From an uncultured Actinomycetes bacterium (lineage in GTDB: Bacteria; Actinomycetota; Thermoleophilia; Gaiellales; JAICJC01), in NCBI GenBank assembly GCA_963766445.1, contig CAVXZW010000017.1, forward strand, positions 24,393-88,392: a stretch of DNA of 64,000 bases, written 5' to 3'. The notes beneath the pieces are model-generated. The model searched no databases, had not been told where the DNA came from, and was given only the letters and a program-made list of their open reading frames with translations. The position numbers were made by a program, and so were the translations under genes. Positions 10,205 to 45,623 of this stretch are shown here, in pieces; the stretch's first letter is position 1; each line of letters begins with the position of its first letter.

Positions 10205-11554
10205 CTACCAGCGAACATCCTGCAGGGCTTCTGCCGCCTGCCGGTACAACTCCGCTGCCCTTGCTGCTTCCCCTCTGCTGTGTGCCACATCCCCGAGCGC
10301 GATCCACGCGCCGGCGAGATGGCTCACCGTCTCCACAGCCGCAAAACAGTCCGCCGCGGCCTTGAAGGACGCCTCCGCCTGGTCGAGCCGGCCGAGCTCA
10401 AGCGACGCGCGGCCGATCACGATTTGAGCGTTACCTTCTTCTTCTCGGTATTCCTCGCGCGAACTCAATAACTCGATCGCGCGATATCCGCTCTCGATCG
10501 CGCCCTCCAGATCGCCGCTGTGCATCCGTGCCGACGCCAGCGACGAGGCCGCGAAGGCCGCGTCGATGCGATTGTCCTGCTCCACCGCGATCCTGAACGA
10601 CTCGCGCAGGAGCGGTACCGCCTCCTCCGGCTTACCGGTGATCGCACGCAGCTGCCCGAGGTTGTTCAGCAGCTTGCCCACGTACTCGTGATCCGCCACC
10701 CGCTCGAACAGCGCCTTCGATCGCTCGGCGTGCTCGCGCGCGCGGGTGTACTCGTTGCGCCGCTCTGCCACCAGCGACGCGTCCAGGTAGGTCTCGGCCA
10801 GCACCCGGTCGTCGTTCAGGGCGTGCGCCAGCTCCAGCGCCTGCTCGACGTCCTCGGCCGCCGCCGTGAAGTCCTTCTGGCGCCGCCGGATCTTGGCCCT
10901 CGCGTTGAAGATACGTGCCCTCAGCGCATCCGACGGGTCGACGGTGGTCTCGCAGGCCCGCAGCGCCTCGTCCAGCAGCGACGCCGCGGTCGCCAGGCTA
11001 CCCATCTTGTACCGGACGACCCCGATCCGGTACAGGGCCAGCGCGAGGGCGTCACCCGATCCAGCCTGCTCCGCCGCATGCCGTGCGGCGGCCAGCTCGA
11101 CCAGCGCATCGTCGAGGCGGCCGACGTTCTGCAGCGCCCAGCCCCGCGCCAGCCGCAGCCGCAGGGCGAGCCGCTCGCTCCCCGGCGACCGGAGGGCGTC
11201 CCTTACACCCTCCAGCTCGGCGAGCGCCTCGGTATCGCGGTGCGCCTCGATCTCGGCCTCGGCACGCGTGACCGCCGCCTCGCAGGCGGCCATGATCGCC
11301 GCCGTGCTCTCCCCGGCCAGCGCCATGCGGTCGACCCCGAGCCGCTCGGCGAACCAGTCGAGTGCGGCCGGCGAGGGCCGCGTCTTGCCCAGCTCCACCT
11401 GGCTCACGTACTCCTTGGAGAAGCGCGAGCCCCCGAGCTCGCCCTGCGTGAGCCCGATCTCGAGCCGCGCCTCGCGCACGCGCGCGCCGACCCCAGTGGC
11501 GCGCTCGCGGCGAGTGACCCCGCGCGTGGTCTCGAGTGTCTTCGCGTCTCCCAT
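10205..11554 (-). CDS. XRE-family HTH transcriptional regulator with a long C-terminal TPR-like domain
   Basis: HTH LTQGELGGSRFSKEYVSQVELGKTRPS, followed by ~360 aa of helical TPR-like repeats. ORF track starts at TTG 11563. ATG 11554 is taken as the start. Confidence 0.8.
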   Translation of the reverse strand: MGDAKTLETTRGVTRRERATGVGARVREARLEIGLTQGELGGSRFSKEYVSQVELGKTRPSPAALDWFAERLGVDRMALAGESTAAIMAACEAAVTRAEAEIEAHRDTEALAELEGVRDALRSPGSERLALRLRLARGWALQNVGRLDDALVELAAARHAAEQAGSGDALALALYRIGVVRYKMGSLATAASLLDEALRACETTVDPSDALRARIFNARAKIRRRQKDFTAAAEDVEQALELAHALNDDRVLAETYLDASLVAERRNEYTRAREHAERSKALFERVADHEYVGKLLNNLGQLRAITGKPEEAVPLLRESFRIAVEQDNRIDAAFAASSLASARMHSGDLEGAIESGYRAIELLSSREEYREEEGNAQIVIGRASLELGRLDQAEASFKAAADCFAAVETVSHLAGAWIALGDVAHSRGEAARAAELYRQAAEALQDVRW

Positions 11555-11568
11555 GTCTCTCAAGGTAG

Positions 11569-11713
11569 CGGACTCCGGGTCACTTGACTAGCACCTCCTG
11601 GAGAATTCGTCGACTGCGGGACTATACGCGATTTCAAGCCAAAACGAGGCGAGTCAAGTAGATCCGACCAGGCAACTTGATTTACCCCTTTTTGTGCACT
11701 TGACCCGGAGTCC
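11569..11713. promoter_or_regulatory. candidate operator array: four CACTTGAC-like boxes and a 13-bp inverted repeat
   Basis: CACTTGAC at 11581-11588 and 11697-11704. Variants GTCAAGTA (~11652) and CAACTTGA (~11673). GGACTCCGGGTCA at 11570-11582 has a perfect reverse complement at 11701-11713. Confidence 0.35.
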
Positions 11714-11728
11714 CCGGGCGACTATTGT
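11700..11728 (+). promoter_or_regulatory. sigma70-like promoter divergent from the XRE-TPR gene
   Basis: TTGACC (11700-11705), 17-nt spacer, TATTGT (11723-11728). Confidence 0.4.
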
Positions 11729-11734
11729 GAGGCT

Positions 11735-11912
11735 ACAACGCAAAGACGGCACGGCGAGACGGTGGTGCCGGAGACGAACCCTCTACCGGTGGGCCGCCGG
11801 GAAGGATTCACAAGTCTCCTCGGGGTCACACCACCCAACTCGCAGCCGGGGGGGTCGGAGTCAAGAAGCGCGTCGGAGTGGACTGGAGCCCCACTCCGAC
11901 GCGCGACTCCGT
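11735..11912 (+). ncRNA. candidate structured non-coding transcript (family not recognised)
   Basis: Starts just downstream of the promoter above. No ORF with the window's strong G/C third-position bias. Several local stems (CGGCAC/GTGCCG, GGAGAC/GTCTCC, CCGGTG/CGCCGG). Ends in a 21-bp interrupted hairpin at 11856-11911. Confidence 0.3.
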
Positions 11913-11925
11913 TAACGGCCCCATA

Positions 11926-12091
11926 GATGGTTGATTCCACGAGCGACGCGGCGCTGGACTGGTCTGGGACACGCCGGACGCCACGATCGTCCTCGGCCAG
12001 GACATCATCCAGCCTGCCCTGCGGACGCTCCCGTCGTCCGGCCCGCCCCATCCTGCGCCCAGCATCCACGCATCCCGTGGAATCAACCATC
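11926..12091. repeat. 166-bp palindromic MITE-like element, copy 1
   Basis: Perfect 16-bp terminal inverted repeats GATGGTTGATTCCACG / CGTGGAATCAACCATC. 150/166 identical by hand alignment to 27459-27624 in opposite orientation. Abuts the hrcA stop codon. Confidence 0.7.
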
Positions 12092-13125
12092 TACTCGTAG
12101 ACCTGCTCGACGAAGTCGGACAGCAGTGCAGCCGCCCCGCGCACCGACCGGATCGCCTTCACGTAGTCCATGCGGTTGGGGCCGATCAGCGAGACCGTGC
12201 CCAGGTTGCGGGCCGGCAGCCCGTAGTTCGCGGCCACCAGCGACAGGCCGCGCAGCTGCGGGATCGCCTCCTCGCCGCCGACGCGCACGTACAGCCGGTT
12301 GGTCTCGAGCGCCCCGCGCAGCAGCTGCAGCAGGCCCGCCCGCTCCTCCAGCGCCAGCATCAGGTCATTGATCTCGGCCAGGTCGTCGTGGCGCAGCTCC
12401 TGCACCAGCCGTGCGGCGCCGCCCACGTACAGGGTCTGCTCGCCGCTGCCCACCAGCTCGGTGAAGGCCGGCTCCAGCGCCCCCATGAACCCCAGCTCGC
12501 GGGCGCCCAGGCCGGGGTCGAACAGGCGCTGGCGCAGCGCTCGCCCGCCCAGTCGCACGCCGCCCAGCTGCTCGTTCAGGTACGCCGTGGCCCACTCGAT
12601 CAGCTTCTCGTCGACCGCCTCCTCGAACGGGAACATGCTCTTGGTGACACCGCCGGTGGAGGTGATCACCACCACCATCACCATCCGCGGCTGCAGCCGC
12701 AGCACCTCGACGTGGCGGATCTCGGCGGTCTCCAGGGGCGGCGCCGTCACCACCGCCAGCAGGTTGGTCACCTGGGACATCATCTCGGTCGTGTTGCGCA
12801 GGGCCGCGTCGACCTCGTTCCGCACCTGCGACAGGTCGATCGGCAGCCGCGCGGCGCCCAGCGGCTGCTCCAGCAGCTGGTGCGCGTACAGCCGGTAGCC
12901 CGCGTCCGTCGGCACCCGCCCGGCCGAGGTGTGCGGGTGGCCGAGCAGCCCCAGCGCCTCCAGCTCGGCGAGTTCGTACCGCACCGTCGATGCCGACGCG
13001 TCCACCGCGCCGCTTTCGACCAGCGCCTTCGAGCCGACCGGATGCCCCGTCGAGATGTACTCGCGCACCACCCGCAACAGGATCAGGACCTGGCGCGGCG
13101 TCAGCTGGCGTTCCACCTCGCTCAT
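12091..13125 (-). CDS. hrcA: heat-inducible transcriptional repressor HrcA
   Basis: 344-aa ORF with the winged-helix N-terminus LTPRQVLILLRVVREYISTGHPVGSKAL. ATGA overlap with hemW. lepA-hemW-hrcA synteny. Confidence 0.9.
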   Translation of the reverse strand: MSEVERQLTPRQVLILLRVVREYISTGHPVGSKALVESGAVDASASTVRYELAELEALGLLGHPHTSAGRVPTDAGYRLYAHQLLEQPLGAARLPIDLSQVRNEVDAALRNTTEMMSQVTNLLAVVTAPPLETAEIRHVEVLRLQPRMVMVVVITSTGGVTKSMFPFEEAVDEKLIEWATAYLNEQLGGVRLGGRALRQRLFDPGLGARELGFMGALEPAFTELVGSGEQTLYVGGAARLVQELRHDDLAEINDLMLALEERAGLLQLLRGALETNRLYVRVGGEEAIPQLRGLSLVAANYGLPARNLGTVSLIGPNRMDYVKAIRSVRGAAALLSDFVEQVYE

Positions 13126-24317: not shown

Positions 24318-24464
24318 GCGGCGATGTTCGCCGCGGGGCCTGTCAGGTGTCAGTCACGAGGGGTGACGAGAGCGTTTCGATCTGGCTCGACAACGAGCCG
24401 AGCGGCGAGGCCGGCACCAGCTGGGCGGGCGCCCCTTCGGGACTTCGGCGAACGACGCTCCCAT

Positions 24465-26943
24465 CTAGGCGACGAAGTTGACCAGCCGCCCAGGCACGAA
24501 GATCGTCTTTCGCACCTCGGCACCGTCCAGGTACGCGGCCACGTTCGGCACCGCCCGCGCCGCCGCCACCACCTCGTCCTCGACCGCATCGGCCGGCACG
24601 CCCACGTCTCCGCGCAGCTTGCCGTTCACCTGCACCGCGTAGGTGACGGTGTCGCTGGCCAGCATCTCCGGATCGGCGACGGGCCAGGGGACGTCCCACA
24701 GCCGCTCGCCACCCAGCCGCTCCCACAGCTCGCAGGCGATGTGCGGCGCATACGGGTGGATCAGGCTGACCGCCGTCGCCGTGGCGAAACGTCGCTGCTC
24801 GCCGGTCGCCGCCGGGAGTGTCCTGGATCGCCGTCACCAGCTCGTGCACCGCCGACTGGGCCGTGTTGAACGAGAACCGATCGCCGATGTCGGAACTGAC
24901 CTTGTCGATCGCCCAGTGTGCCTTGCGCACCATGTCGCCGCCGGGGCCGTCGGCGGCGACCGCCGCCGGGATGCCGGTGCCATGACTGGCAACGACCTCG
25001 TTCGCCAGCCTCCACAGCCGCGCCAGGAACCGGTGCTGGCCGGCCACGCCGGAGTCCTGCCACTCGGCGTCCTGCTCGGGCGGCCCCAGAAACAGCGTGT
25101 ACAGCCGCGTGGTGTCGGCGCCGTAGCGTTCGATGTACTCATCGGGGTTGATGATGTTGCCCCGCGACTTGGACATCTTGGCGCCCTGGTAGTAGATCAT
25201 CCCCTGCGTGAACAGGTTCGCGAACGGCTCGGTGAAGCCCAGGTGCCCCAGGTCGTACAGCGCCTTGGTGAAGAAGCGCGCATACATCAGGTGCAGGATC
25301 GCGTGCTCGACGCCGCCGATGTACTGGTCGACCGGCAGCCACGTGTCGACGATGTCGCGCTGGAACGGCGCGGTTGCGTTCTGGGGATCCGCGTAGCGCA
25401 TGTAGTACCAGGACGAGTCCACGAACGTGTCCATCGTGTCGGTCTCGCGCCGGCCCGGGCCGCCGCAGCTCGGGCACGACACGTGCACCCAGTCCTCGGC
25501 CGCGGCCAGCGGGGAGCGGCCCTTGGGGGCGAAGTCCTCGACCTTGGGCAGCACCACCGGCAGCTGGTCGTCCGGCACGGGCACGACGCCGCAGGACTCG
25601 CAGTGGACGATCGGGATCGGGCAGCCCCAGTAGCGCTGCCGTGACAGCAGCCAGTCGCGCAGGCGGAAGGCCACGCGCCCGTGTCCCGATCCCTCGCCCT
25701 CCAGCCACTCGATGATGGCGCGCTTGCCCTCCGGCGCCGGCATGCCGGTGAATGCCGCCGAGTTGATCAGCACCTCGTCGGCGCTGTGCGCGACGAACGC
25801 ACCCTCGATCCGGCGCGTATCGCCGTCGCGCGGCGCCACCACCTGGCGCACCGGCAGCCCGAACTTCTCCGCGAACTCGAAGTCGCGCTCGTCGTGGCCG
25901 GGCACCGCCATCACCGCGCCGGTGCCGTACTCCATCAGGACGTAGTCGGCCACCCACACCGGAATCGCCTCGCCGTTTACCGGGTTGACGACGTTGCGCC
26001 CGGTGAAAACGCCGGTCTTCTCCTTCTCGGATGAGCGCTCCACCTCGGACAGCGCCGATGTGTGCCGGACGTAGTCGGCCACCGCCTGCTCCTGATCGGT
26101 GCCGCGCGCCAGCTCCGCCGACAGCGGGTGCTCGGGCGCCAGGACGAAGAAGGTGGCGCCGTACAGCGTGTCCGGGCGCGTGGTGAACACCGGCAGCTCG
26201 ATCGACGGGTCATGCTCTGCCCGGAACGTGACCTCGGCGCCCTCGCTGCGGCCGATCCAGTTGCGCTGCATGGTCACGACCCGCTCCGGCCATCGCACCT
26301 CGGCCAGGTCGTCCAGCAGCCGCTGCGCGTAGTCGGTGATCTTGAAGAACCACTGCTCCAGGTTCTTGGCTTCGACCTCGGCGCCGCAGCGCTCGCAGTG
26401 GCCGTCGATCACCTGCTCGTTGGCCAGCACCGTCTGGTCGTTGGGGCACCACTTGACGGCCGCGTTCTTGCGGTAGGCCAGGCCGGCCTCGAACAGCCGC
26501 AGGAAGATCCACTGCGTCCAGCGGTAGTAGTCGGGCTCGGAGGTGGACAGCTCCCGCGTCCAGTCGATCGACCAGCCCATGCGGCGCATCTGCACGCGGA
26601 TCGCCTCGATGTTCTCGCGCGTCGACACGCTCGGGTGCTTGCCGCTCTTGATGGCCGCGTTCTCGGCCGGCAGGCCGAACGCGTCGTAGCCCATCGGGTG
26701 CATCACGCGCCAGCCGTTGCGCCGCTTGTAGAGCGTGACCACGTCGCCCATCGTGTAGTTCTTGACGTGCCCCATGTGCAGCTCGCCCGACGGGTAGGGC
26801 AGCATCTCCAGCACGTACATCAGCTTCGAGGTGTCCTCGCCGGGCTCCGGGTTGGGCACCTCGTGGATGCGCTGGTCGTGCCAGATCTTCTGCCAGCGGG
26901 CCTCGATCGCTGCGGGGTCGTAGCGTTCCATGGGGCCTTGCAT
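24465..26943 (-). CDS. leuS: leucine--tRNA ligase, one frame shift near the C-terminus
   Basis: [11 protein letters not shown] and KMSKSRGN class I signatures. The last ~110 aa are in the frame of ORF 24465..24665 (...[13 protein letters not shown]...). Shift near 24810. Confidence 0.95.
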
Positions 26944-26982: not shown

Positions 26983-27456
26983 CTAGAGCCCCGGCTTGAC
27001 CACCATGTCCACGACGACGAGCATCAGGAACAGCAGCTCGATGCGGCTGACCAGGAAGATCCGCTCGATGCGCCGGGTGGCCTCGGTCGAGCCGACGCCG
27101 TGCAGCTCGATGGCGCGGGCGATCCGGGCCGACTCGGGTGCCAGGAAGCCGACGCCTACGGCGAACGAGGCCGCGAACACGGCCAGCGCGAATATCAGCC
27201 AGGTGCTGCCGAGCGACCAGTTGCCCTCGTTGACGAGCAGGAATCCGAACACGACCAGCACCAGCGAGGCCGGCGTGAACATGGTCTTGCCCACGAACCC
27301 GGCGTCGCGTGCGAAGCCGGCCAACCGCTCCGGGCTGGGGTCGGCCATCGCGCGGGCGGCGTAGACCTGGGTGATGGTGGCGCCGCCCACCCACACGACC
27401 GCGGCCAGGATGTGCACGGTCAGGTAGAACTGGTAGGCGGTGACGAGCTCGATCAT
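26983..27456 (-). CDS. DUF2269-like integral membrane protein
   Basis: 157-aa ORF with four hydrophobic helices (MIELVTAYQFYLTVHILAAVVWVGG...). Confidence 0.7.
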   Translation of the reverse strand: MIELVTAYQFYLTVHILAAVVWVGGATITQVYAARAMADPSPERLAGFARDAGFVGKTMFTPASLVLVVFGFLLVNEGNWSLGSTWLIFALAVFAASFAVGVGFLAPESARIARAIELHGVGSTEATRRIERIFLVSRIELLFLMLVVVDMVVKPGL

Positions 27457-27458
27457 CG

Positions 27459-27624
27459 GAGTGTTGATCTCACGGGATGCGTGGATGCTGGGCGCAGGAC
27501 GGGGCGCGCTGGACGTCGGGAGCGTCCGCAGGGCAGGCTGGATGATGCCCTGGCCAAGGACGATCGTGGCGTCCAGCGTGTCCCAGACCAGTCCGGCGCC
27601 GCGCAGCTCGTGCGATCAACCATC
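27459..27624. repeat. 166-bp palindromic MITE-like element, copy 2 (inverted relative to copy 1)
   Basis: Same length as copy 1, 16 substitutions, no indels by hand alignment. Right end ...GCGATCAACCATC abuts the marR TAA. Degenerate left end GAGTGTTGATCTCACG lies 2 nt from the ATG of the DUF2269 gene. Confidence 0.7.
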
Positions 27625-28080
27625 TTAGGAGTCGAGGCGGTCCCAGAAGGCGGCCAGCTGCGCCTGCTCTTCGGCGTCGAATCGCGACAGGAAGCGCTCG
27701 CGCACGTCGCTGACGTGGGTGCGCCGGGCGGTCTCCAGCCGCGCCCGGCCGGCGTCGGTGATCACCGCGAAGGCGCCACGGGCATCGGAGTCGCATGCCT
27801 GGCGCTCGACCAGTCCGTCCCGCTCCAGCCGGTCGACCAGCCGCGTGACGCCGCTGCGGCTGAGCCACACCGACTGCGCCAGGTCGCTCATGCGCTGCTT
27901 GCCCTCGTCCTGCTGGGCCAGCCGCGCCAGCACCTCGAACGAGCTCAGCGGCAGGCCGTGCGCCTCGACCAGGGTCGCGTCCAGCTGGCGCACGATCGCC
28001 GCGTGCGATCGCAGGTACCCGCCCCAGGCGGCTCGCTCAAGGTCGGTCAGACGGTCGGTGGTGTTCGGCAACGTTGCCAC
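27625..28080 (-). CDS. MarR-family transcriptional regulator
   Basis: ...LSSFEVLARLAQQDEGKQRMSDLAQSVWLSRSGVTRLVDRLERDGLVER winged helix. ORF trimmed to GTG 28080. Divergent from the M3 peptidase gene. Confidence 0.8.
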   Translation of the reverse strand: MATLPNTTDRLTDLERAAWGGYLRSHAAIVRQLDATLVEAHGLPLSSFEVLARLAQQDEGKQRMSDLAQSVWLSRSGVTRLVDRLERDGLVERQACDSDARGAFAVITDAGRARLETARRTHVSDVRERFLSRFDAEEQAQLAAFWDRLDS

Positions 28081-28133
28081 GGCCTGGAAAGGGTACCGAA
28101 TCGGGTTACAGGGGACCACGCTAGGCTTGGTTT

Positions 28134-29912
28134 GTGAGCACCGTGCAGGCCTCCGGAGTCCGCTGGGATCTGTCCCCGCTGTTCGCCTCCCCGGAGGCCG
28201 CCGAGGCGGCCATCGAACCCTCGCTGGAGCGGGCACGGGCGTTCGAGTCGGCCTGGCGGGGGCGCATGGCGGAGCTGACGCCGGCCCAGCTGGCCGACGC
28301 GCTGCACGAACTGGGCGAGATCGACAACGAGCTGTCGCGGATCGCCTCCTACACGATGCTGCGAAAGGCGGTGGATGTCACCAGCGAGCAGAACCGCGAC
28401 CTGGGGGCGGCCGTCGACGCGGCCATCGTGCAGGCTCGGAATGCGCTGCGCTTCTTCGAGCTGGAGTGGCTGGCGCTGGACGACGAGCGGGCGGGCGAGC
28501 TGCTCGCCGCTCCCGAGGTCGCGGCCGACCGCCACTACCTGACCGCCCAGCGCCGCTATCGCGATCACGTGCTCTCGGAGCCCGAGGAGCGCGCTCTCGG
28601 CGAACGCGACCCAGCCGCCGTGTCCGCCTGGCAAACGCTCTATGCACAGACCACGTCCACCATCGAGGTGCCGTTCGACTCCGGCGACGGGCCCCAGCCG
28701 CACACCATCGACCGGCTGCTGGCCTACGTGCACGATTCACGCCGCGACGTGCGGCTGGCGGCGCTCGACACGCTCTACGCCGCGCTGGAGGCGCCGGCGC
28801 CGGTGCTGGCCCACTGCTACGACTCGCTGGTCGCCGACCGGCTCGTGAGCGACCGCCTGCGCAGCTATGGCGATGACCCGATGCTGCCCACGCACCTGGA
28901 CAACGAGCTGGACGCCCCCGTGGTACAGGCGATGCTCGAGCAGGTCGAAGCGCGCTACCCGCTGGCACAGCGCTGGTTTCGCGCGAAGGCCGCCATGTTG
29001 GGCCTGGAGGTGCTGGAGCTGGCCGACCAGTACGCGCCCCTCGGCGAGGCCAGGCCGGTCGGCTACGACGAGGGCCGCTCGCTGGTGGACGCCGCGTTCG
29101 CCGGCTTCTCGCCGGAGGCGGCGTCGATCGCCGAAGCCTTCTTCACCGAGCAGCGCGTCGACGCCGAGCCCCGGGCCGGGAAGCGCGGCGGGGCGTTCTG
29201 CTCGCCGGTCGCCCAGGACGCCTCCCCCTACGTGATGCTGAACTACACGGACACGATGAACGACGTGCTGACGATCGCCCACGAGCTCGGGCACGGCATG
29301 CACTTCCAGCTCGCGCACGCGGCCCAGACGCCGCACTCGGCCCACACCGGCCTGGCGCTGGCCGAGGTGCCTTCGACGTTCGCGGAGTTCGTCGCCTACG
29401 ACCACCTACTCGCCAACGAGGAGGATCGGTCGACGCGGCAGGCGCTGACCTCCGAGCGCGTCGAGGGCGCGTTCGCGACCATCTTCCGACAGACCGTGCT
29501 GGCCCGCTACGAGCAGGGTGCCTACGGGCTGCGGGCCGGCTCGCAAGCGCTCTCGGTCGACCGCCTCAGCGACATCTGGATCGAGCAGAACCTGCGCTAC
29601 TACGGTGACAGCATCCACCTGTCGGACGGATACCGGCTGGGCTGGTCGTACATCCCCCACTTCATCTCGACCCGCTTCTACACCTACGCCTACGTGTTCG
29701 CGAAGCTGGTCGCGCTGGCCCTGTACGCGCGCTGGCGGGCGCAGGGAGAGGAGTTCGTGGCGCCCTACCTGAAGTTCATGGCCGCCGGCGGATCGGGGGC
29801 ACCCGCCGACCTGCTGGCTGTGCTCGGCGTCGACCTTTCCGGTCGCGAGATCTGGGATACGGCCTTCGACGAGCTGGAGCGCATGATCGCGGCGGCCGAG
29901 AGCGAGGCTTGA
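28134..29912 (+). CDS. M3-family oligoendopeptidase (PepF-like)
   Basis: 592-aa ORF with the HELGHGMH zinc motif. Confidence 0.9.
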   Translation: MSTVQASGVRWDLSPLFASPEAAEAAIEPSLERARAFESAWRGRMAELTPAQLADALHELGEIDNELSRIASYTMLRKAVDVTSEQNRDLGAAVDAAIVQARNALRFFELEWLALDDERAGELLAAPEVAADRHYLTAQRRYRDHVLSEPEERALGERDPAAVSAWQTLYAQTTSTIEVPFDSGDGPQPHTIDRLLAYVHDSRRDVRLAALDTLYAALEAPAPVLAHCYDSLVADRLVSDRLRSYGDDPMLPTHLDNELDAPVVQAMLEQVEARYPLAQRWFRAKAAMLGLEVLELADQYAPLGEARPVGYDEGRSLVDAAFAGFSPEAASIAEAFFTEQRVDAEPRAGKRGGAFCSPVAQDASPYVMLNYTDTMNDVLTIAHELGHGMHFQLAHAAQTPHSAHTGLALAEVPSTFAEFVAYDHLLANEEDRSTRQALTSERVEGAFATIFRQTVLARYEQGAYGLRAGSQALSVDRLSDIWIEQNLRYYGDSIHLSDGYRLGWSYIPHFISTRFYTYAYVFAKLVALALYARWRAQGEEFVAPYLKFMAAGGSGAPADLLAVLGVDLSGREIWDTAFDELERMIAAAESEA

Positions 29913-45234: not shown

Positions 45235-45562
45235 GGGGGTGGAACGCAGGTGCCGGGCACCGTCGTTACACCGTTCACATCTCCGTGACCATTCCGCGAC
45301 AAGCGGCTGATAGAGAGGTGCCGGGCACCGTTCCATCACCCGTGACGAGGCCGTGATCGCGATGTGACAAATCCAAGCGTCACGGATCCGTCACGCCGCG
45401 GTCACACGTGGAACGACGGTGCCCGGCACCTGCGTTCCACCCGGGCGGCTCCCGCGCACCGGGCGTGCGGCAGGGGGCGCGTCACGGGACGGTCACGCCG
45501 GCGTCACGGGACGGTCACGCCGGCGTCGCGCCAGTTACGACGGTGCCCGGCACCTCTCCATC
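45235..45562. repeat. repeat-dense leader: four GGTGCC(G/C)GGCACC palindromes, a 33-bp near-palindrome twice, 22-bp tandem duplication, many GTCACG boxes
   Basis: 33-mers at 45239-45271 and 45408-45440 are reverse complements with 1 mismatch. Core palindromes are centred near 45255, 45323, 45424 and 45547. GCGTCACGGGACGGTCACGCCG occurs in tandem at 45479-45522. Confidence 0.6.
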
Positions 45563-45623
45563 AGTCTCGACCGGTGGTTGAGGGTTCCGGCGTTGTCGAA
45601 CGGGCGCGTCGTGCCTGCGCCGG

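Follow-up and report, generated by a model that had tools for sequence, protein, structure and literature searches.

The 64,000-nucleotide stretch analysed here (the window, 64 kb of contig CAVXZW010000017.1 from an uncultured Gaiellales bacterium) carries at the 3' end of hrcA a palindromic element with a 166-bp core, referred to below as copy 1, and a second copy (copy 2) lies 15.4 kb away in the opposite orientation. The terminal inverted repeats of copy 1 are perfect (16/16 bp), the outer palindrome reaches TAGATGG...CCATCTA (11924-12093), and the TAG stop codon of hrcA (complement of 12091-12093) coincides with the final base of the core and with the flanking TA. All of these coordinates had been proposed in an initial annotation of the window and were reproduced here, as was its hand alignment of the two copies (150/166 identical, no indels). 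The pair is the longest inverted repeat of the window (I1, 172 nt, 90%), and one terminus of copy 2 is degenerate (GAGTGTTGATCTCACG). We call A the plus strand of copy 1 and B the strand that folds best, which in copy 1 is the minus strand and has the same sense as hrcA. The features at the two loci are listed in Table 1.

Table 1. Position of the two copies of the element and of neighbouring features in the window.
Feature	Position	Strand	Remarks
Copy 1 of the element	11924..12093		166-bp core 11926-12091 plus TA on each side; nhmmer 191.6 bits
Left terminal inverted repeat of copy 1, GATGGTTGATTCCACG	11926..11941	+	0 mismatches
Right terminal inverted repeat of copy 1, GATGGTTGATTCCACG on the minus strand	12076..12091	-	0 mismatches
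hrcA, 344 aa	12091..13125	-	Pfam HrcA, E 3e-42
14-bp G+C-rich hairpin, then TTCTTGA	11868..11904	-	Also kept in element-less relative L060
TPR/MalT-like regulator, next gene 3' of hrcA	10205..11563	-	330 nt past copy 1
Copy 2 of the element	27459..27624		Inverted relative to copy 1, B strand = plus; nhmmer 186.2 bits
MarR-family regulator, open reading frame	27625..28236	-	TAA stop (27625-27627) abuts copy 2 directly
DUF2269 membrane protein	26983..27456	-	ATG (27454-27456) and the opposite end of copy 2 are 2 nt apart

To find further copies, exact-word scans were run with a 22-mer from the apex against species-representative genomes and with a 20-mer against metagenomes. The 22-mer hit 15 loci in the genome collection, 14 of them real, in seven soil metagenome-assembled genomes (MAGs) of Gaiellales, Thermoleophilia or 'Actinomycetes' with one to three loci per MAG, and the 20-mer hit 44 metagenome loci, of which 36 were real and came without exception from soil or rhizosphere; the other matches (8/44 and 1/15) were discarded as due to chance. 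Both scans together gave 50 further copies beyond the two of the window, and the palindrome is therefore far beyond chance, because the same 166-bp unit recurs at 50 other public Gaiellales places. A profile search of the recovered DNA with nhmmer found 52 copies that scored more than 100 bits. They have 39 distinct flank contexts, some of which are one locus in different samples, and we count ~37 distinct loci including those of the window. The short form measures 166 bp (range 163-169) and a long form 223 bp; distinct short copies are 81-100% identical in pairs (median 91%), and all full copies have the terminal inverted repeats, the ends of the element being GATGGTTGATTCC...GGAATCAACCATC. 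The closest named relatives of the HrcA protein are Gaiellales proteins. In four soil DNA runs the words of the element had a depth of 150-800 compared with 5-30 for single-copy flanks (15-40 times deeper), loose ends of contigs accumulated at 11924/11926 and 12091/12093, and a long-read MAG had one exact-word match per ~270 kb. This depth, the word density in the MAG and the presence of two copies in 64 kb suggest low tens of copies per genome.

The initial annotation had likened the element to non-autonomous MITEs (miniature transposable elements with inverted repeats) of the Correia or ERIC type, and this is borne out by numerous copies that occur in several Gaiellales species and whose flanks are unrelated. 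The element has most of the features by which MITEs are defined (PMC3184786): it is small (<~400 bp), contains no transposase gene, has terminal inverted repeats and dispersed copies, and is present or absent among relatives. With blastn it had no match in plasmids, in phages or in 5,426 E. coli genomes. Rfam 15 at gathering score recognised only a tRNA in the window and nothing on the element; with E up to 10 there were only sub-threshold microRNA hairpins, which we rejected as generic long-hairpin matches (best MIR1858, 43.7 bits versus a threshold of 137). Our literature search on Gaiellales repeats found no paper, and Actinobacteria are absent altogether from a 2024 review of MITEs in prokaryotes (PMC10969869). 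The family is new, whereas its kind, ERIC- and Correia-like, is familiar.

Empty alleles were seen for both copies of the window and for two other loci, and this presence/absence polymorphism together with the ~37 loci means that the family is neither limited to two copies nor confined to orthologous positions. At the hrcA locus the element is present in L063, whose HrcA is 97% identical and whose contig ends 27 nt inside the element, and absent from a soil contig of a ~93% identical relative, which reads ...GAG TAA GCGC TTAACGG; more distant relatives have different genes 3' of hrcA. The HrcA protein ends in ..FVEQVYE* identically in relatives without the element, and in ..VYE* whether the element is present or absent. 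Another relative, L060, has flanks ~98% identical to those of copy 1 and 15 nt where the element would be. We doubt that this is a virgin empty site, given that the 15-nt filler (TCAGGGCGCAGGCCGC region) matches an internal stretch of the element at 10/11 positions and that the contig is frameshifted. At L060 3380-3620 the hrcA stop is lost and the reading frame runs to 372 aa, and the same contig carries split lepA and hemN genes; L060 has either the remnant of an imprecise deletion or an error-prone long-read assembly. At the locus of copy 2, soil contigs without the element join the two flanks directly, with the TGA of the MarR gene overlapping a TTG start of the DUF2269 gene (TTGA). An empty allele of the L014 locus upstream of trkA (stop TAA, 3 nt, ATG) was found in all four soil runs.

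The cleanest comparison comes from L015, in which a second copy (L015b, 1611-1781) is absent from L014 and the flanks are nearly identical. The empty sequence of L014 is GGGACCTAGTAC and the occupied sequence GGGACGTA[element]TAGTAC, or in detail GGGAC-C-TA-GTAC when empty and GGGAC-G-TA[GATGATCGG...CCGATCATC]TA-GTAC when occupied, which amounts to a TA duplication within CTAG. Duplication of the three bases TAG would fit this pair as well, yet symmetric ends result only from TA. Across the 37 loci the flank base at the core is A in 27, the flank consensus being YTA|TAR, and several copies have 1-3 extra bases between the core and TA. A TA duplication is thus demonstrated for a single pair and agrees with YTA|TAR, without being a general feature. 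Longer duplications (TNA, YTAR/CTAG, GATG, 8 bp) were also considered and none was consistent across copies.

Some individual junctions have peculiarities of their own. An 8-bp direct repeat, TCTAGTGC, borders the copy in L018 1780-1985 (L025 is the same) on both sides and is not explained by a TA duplication; the left flank, TCAACCATCTAGTGC, mimics the right end of the element with its flank and may be the remnant of an earlier copy. In L046 4644-4690 (the same as L049 and L054) a 22-nt fragment of another left arm, GATTCCACGGGCTACCGCGGC, lies 5 nt past the right end. Copies tend to cluster, as in L015 where two of them lie 440 nt apart around one small gene. The left flank of L029 is that of L011 (4431-4700) and its right flank that of L008 (4100-4394), and here either recombination between copies deleted or rearranged the intervening DNA, or the assembly is chimeric through the repeat.

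With respect to genes the element has no orientation preference and is strongly depleted from promoter regions. Tandem loci have their genes in the A sense in 13 cases and in the B sense in 8-10; another 10-12 loci are convergent and 1 (of ~34) is divergent, where ~25% would be expected by chance. The gaps between the element and the neighbouring open reading frames are mostly -3 to +4 nt, with the element filling the intergenic space; it lands on a stop codon, between two genes whose translation is coupled, or in the interval from a stop codon to its terminator. The downstream ATG is found 2-3 nt past the core, as CCATC-NN-ATG, in at least seven independent loci, among them copy 2, accB-accC (L001) and the trkA locus (L014/L015). 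The neighbours are ordinary metabolic and housekeeping genes, and no recurrent partner protein was found among 135 neighbouring open reading frames, the most frequent Pfam family (ABC permeases) occurring 6 times. The element itself had been thought to contain no credible open reading frame, and indeed those overlapping it (57 aa on the plus and 122 aa on the minus strand) have no Pfam match. We also rejected a coding role for the A-strand frame, which is open and in frame with the downstream ATGs but has no start codon, no Pfam match and a palindromic mode of evolution; its alignment with the ATGs is a by-product of the constant CCATC-NN-ATG spacing. No sigma-70-like promoter and no intrinsic terminator were found within the element.

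Copy 1 lies between the hrcA stop and the G+C-rich hairpin of Table 1, which is probably the original hrcA terminator; a simple terminator scan did not call it. The sole sigma-70-like promoter match of this region, TTGACC-17 nt-TATTGT at 11700-11728 on the plus strand (0.0 expected in shuffles), faces the hairpin and runs antisense to the TPR gene's leader. The stretch 11700-11905 is ~98% conserved in L060 and possibly contains a small RNA or a leader.

The long rod that the initial annotation had foreseen was obtained for copy 1 with -120.4 kcal/mol on the minus strand (z -10.9, 0/200 shuffles equal), compared with -85.8 kcal/mol (z -6.0) on the plus strand. We analysed structure and evolution in 31 distinct short copies, for which RNAalifold gave as consensus a single rod of 63 pairs. 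Each arm also has a small local hairpin that can be read from the sequence (TCCACG-N5-CGTGGA). On the B strand 98.3% of cells are standard pairs, as opposed to 32-40% in slid controls, and the covariation that had been suggested as a check was present: 13 pairs have changed on both sides against 4.6 in shuffles, none of 500 shuffles reaching 13. The terminal repeats co-vary too, for example in L013, L015b, L034 and L043.

Beyond what had been anticipated, the fold is specific for one strand. On the A strand only 85.9% of cells are paired, and B folds better in 32/32 copies, with RNA parameters (-116.6 versus -79.0 kcal/mol) as well as with DNA parameters (-58.3 versus -41.2). The B strand has 246 G·U cells at 27 positions (12.7% of paired cells) whereas the A strand has 5 at 4 positions, which means that G·U is tolerated on B and A·C is not. 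Mutation bias was ruled out as the cause of this asymmetry because transitions on the B strand are balanced in direction (23 C>T plus A>G versus 23 G>A plus T>C), so that the asymmetry reflects a constraint. Stems have 46 transitions and 25 transversions, and unpaired columns 17 and 22. When orthologous loci are compared on B, 23 stem differences exchange a Watson-Crick pair for G·U or the reverse and 6 produce A·C, and 4 of these 6 lie at the insertion site of the long form and on manual reading are alignment artefacts. The flanks of these loci diverge no faster than the element itself (for example, 97-98% identity against 93.7% for the element). The one-strand conservation of pairing implies a single-stranded stage, whether RNA or DNA, that is important for the spread or the fitness of the element.

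The 223-bp variant, which the initial annotation did not include either, was found in eight copies and has a module of ~64 nt in place of the 7 nt TGGACTG. The module consists of two perfect mini-hairpins, GCGATCTGCG-TCAT-CGCAGATCGC and GGCGCAAGCC-ATGG-(CTTGCGCC), is constant in position and orientation, and was never seen outside the element; with it, the B strand folds as a four-way junction. An insertion sequence end had been considered in the conserved left part of L004, L006, L008, L011 and L015, and was rejected as this is a module of ~57 nt inside the element. Three times the short and the long form occupy one locus in close relatives (L014/L015a, L001/L058 and L029/L011). We infer from this that the swaps are exchanges of sequence among copies by gene conversion and not repeated identical indels. 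A second subfamily is distinguished at the apex (GGACATGCCCAGCC).

Soil metatranscriptome contigs contain words of the element and continue from it into many different flanks. In metatranscriptome run X25 (window 11915-12089) we observed a contig, from a strain with a slightly different spacer, that joins TAGATG to ATCTA, skipping the rod and keeping 5-6 nt of each end. It represents either a jump of reverse transcriptase across the hairpin, or a true excision or deletion allele.

From these analyses we consider, with a probability of roughly 0.75, that copies 1 and 2 belong to an undescribed family of non-autonomous foldback MITEs of uncultured soil Gaiellales (Thermoleophilia, Actinomycetota), which are transcribed together with their host genes as a hairpin. 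The element would insert at TA (CTAG-like) sites and be tolerated almost only at gene ends. It would be mobilised in trans by a TA-duplicating DDE transposase encoded elsewhere, either IS630/Tc1-mariner-like or of the IS5 group targeting CTAG, and resident copies would then exchange sequence by gene conversion, a process that may account for the swap of short and long forms at one locus. Once inserted, the element would be co-transcribed with its neighbours and fold into a long hairpin. Copy 1 would take the stable B form in the 3' untranslated region of hrcA, upstream of the terminator hairpin. Its most likely role there would be to block 3' exonucleases or to offer double-strand RNases a site of attack, which would alter the stability of the hrcA mRNA and not the HrcA protein; a consequence for the stability or processing of the mRNA 3' end is likely by analogy with Correia and ERIC elements, for which effects of RNase III and RNase E are described (PMC10969869). 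At copy 2 the A form would separate two genes that formerly overlapped, with the rod bringing the stop and start codons together again. Perhaps the rod preserves translational coupling in this way, and insertions between coupled genes may for that reason be tolerated.

Several observations weigh against such a MITE. The initial annotation had taken the TA flanks as fitting an IS630/Tc1-type target, and this was upheld only in part: there is the clean TA duplication in CTAG, but TA is found on the left at 17 loci, on the right at 12, and on both sides at only 3 of ~37 (copy 1, L015b and L055), the junctions at the other loci with empty alleles are remodelled and are not simple TA duplications, and a parent element was not found. 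A search that covered only ~0.4 Mb around known copies detected no transposase with matching ends, and there were no extra solo ends in this 0.4 Mb. Contigs from the RNA runs are unstranded and have an element-to-flank ratio similar to that of the DNA runs, so that DNA carry-over is possible. Template switching in quasi-palindromes during replication could make compensatory changes without selection, including the matched changes of the terminal repeats, although it would not produce the strand asymmetry. Finally, cut-and-paste of double-stranded DNA leaves unexplained why pairing is kept on one strand whatever the direction of the host gene.

Other explanations were considered as well. One of them, to which we give only a small chance, is that the element is more than a selfish DNA transposon, namely a mobile module of structured RNA, or of single-stranded DNA, in which B is the active strand of every copy, whatever its orientation in the host. 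Possibly the rod RNA of ~166 nt from each copy, with the four-way junction as an optional variant, would be functional, or else B would serve as intermediate in a mobilisation system that depends on a hairpin and has so far not been described in Actinomycetota. We also regard as improbable a REPIN-like entity, that is, a single-stranded DNA hairpin with B as the recognised strand that is moved by a HUH tyrosine transposase (RAYT or IS200/IS605 type) whose single-copy gene is unlinked. Pairing on one strand with common compensatory changes, as reported for REPINs (PMC3116915), the low tens of copies per genome, the local hairpin of each arm and the lack of a clear duplication at most copies would all agree with it. 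Yet the TA duplication of the clean pair is not made by HUH single-strand transposition, the element ends in genuine, symmetric terminal inverted repeats, no gene for a Y1 transposase was found near any copy, among the 25 commonest neighbour families listed, and with 166 bp and 63 pairs the element is much longer than known REPINs.

On a similarly low footing we place a dispersed structured-RNA gene or cis-regulatory module (a stabiliser, a processing site or a small RNA) that is selected for its B-sense transcript and that mobility only spreads. Such a role would account for the RNA-like substitutions, with their G·U pairs and with a transition excess in stems that unpaired columns do not have, and for the Watson-Crick/G·U switches that make up most orthologous stem differences; the four-way junction of the long form with its two added hairpins and the element words in metatranscriptomes are also in its favour. 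It is difficult to reconcile with both orientations being about equally common, with the lack of a promoter-like site in the element and of any Rfam match, with a divergence no slower than that of the flanking genes, and with the presence or absence of copies among close relatives. An attC-kind integron site, or another folded-DNA site of a tyrosine recombinase, is suggested by the imperfect palindrome of attC-like size directly after stop codons and by its strand-specific folding, but is highly improbable and we disfavour it: there are no arrays, the copies of the window being inverted, separated by 15 kb and neighboured by housekeeping genes (hrcA and the leuS region), there is no integrase among recurrent neighbours, the whole sequence is conserved and not short core sites alone, and a TA duplication was seen. 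A retron-like non-coding RNA was rejected, as there is no reverse transcriptase nearby and the order of the hairpins is wrong.

Two other features of the window were recorded. A 330-nt intergenic stretch at 45237-45564 has four copies of a palindromic motif, AGGTGCCGGGCACCGT, within the nested inverted repeats I2, I3 and I11; its sequence is unrelated to the element, and an array of operators or a different small repeat are possible readings. In the leuS reading frame (24343-26943, minus strand, 866 aa) the last ~170 residues (24343-24900) are Arg/Gly/Ala-rich, of low complexity and look out-of-frame, which may reflect a frameshift in the assembly or in the gene.

The element adds a repeat family to Gaiellales, an abundant and almost uncultured soil order. 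It breaks short-read assemblies at gene ends, as in L063, and can create chimeric contigs, as in L029. It lies on stop codons or between coupled genes of housekeeping operons (hrcA, accB-accC and the gene upstream of trkA), and because it sits exactly there it provides a natural experiment on the effect of a 166-nt hairpin on mRNA decay and translational coupling.

Among known systems, MITEs of the IS630/Tc1-mariner type share with the element the TA duplication, its single clean empty site being C-TA-G and its flank consensus that given above. Tenzen and Ohtsubo are said to have found CTAG to be the preferred target of IS630 itself. The putative link to IS630/Tc1 is drawn solely from this TA/CTAG target. 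The palindrome is full-length and does not consist of two short ends, and no IS630-type transposase or longer element with the same ends was found around the copies. REPIN/RAYT systems resemble the element in the symmetric hairpin unit, the compensatory changes, the modest populations that persist in a lineage and the unlinked mobilising gene (PMC3116915). REPINs, however, are ~70-110 bp long, consist of two short REPs and have no target duplication, and the RAYT gene is flanked by REPs, whereas the element showed a TA duplication in the one clean pair and has symmetric ends, and no RAYT was seen among its recurrent neighbours.

The Correia (NEMIS, CREE) elements of Neisseria are MITEs of ~100-160 bp that duplicate TA, often lie near or overlap gene ends and are co-transcribed; in the RNA their terminal repeats form a duplex that RNase III cuts, and their transposase is unknown, as it is for the element (PMC3184786; PMC10969869). 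In Correia elements the pairing is limited to the 26-bp ends and the interior is not palindromic, there are promoters and an IHF site, and the position is mostly upstream of genes, whereas in the element no promoter was found and divergent (promoter) regions are avoided (1/~34).

ERIC (or IRU) sequences are full-length imperfect palindromes of ~130-170 bp with terminal inverted repeats and TA at their termini, like the element (PMC3184786; PMC10969869). They too lie in transcribed intergenic regions, often at the 3' ends of genes, in tens of copies per genome that are present or absent between strains, and the enzyme that mobilises them is unknown. Longer ERIC variants with ~70-bp insertions at fixed internal sites, and effects on mRNA that depend on orientation, have reportedly been described by Wilson & Sharp in 2006 and De Gregorio et al. 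in 2005. There is no sequence similarity between the two, as judged by blastn against the 5,426 E. coli genomes; ERIC is hosted by Enterobacteriaceae and Vibrionaceae and the element by Gaiellales, and the element, with its 166 bp, exceeds ERIC in length, in the stability of its pairing and, by far, in G+C content. We know of no report for ERIC that pairing is conserved on one strand only. The strictly one-strand pairing described here is a clean, testable clue to how orphan MITEs such as ERIC and Correia, whose transposases are unknown, are propagated or selected.

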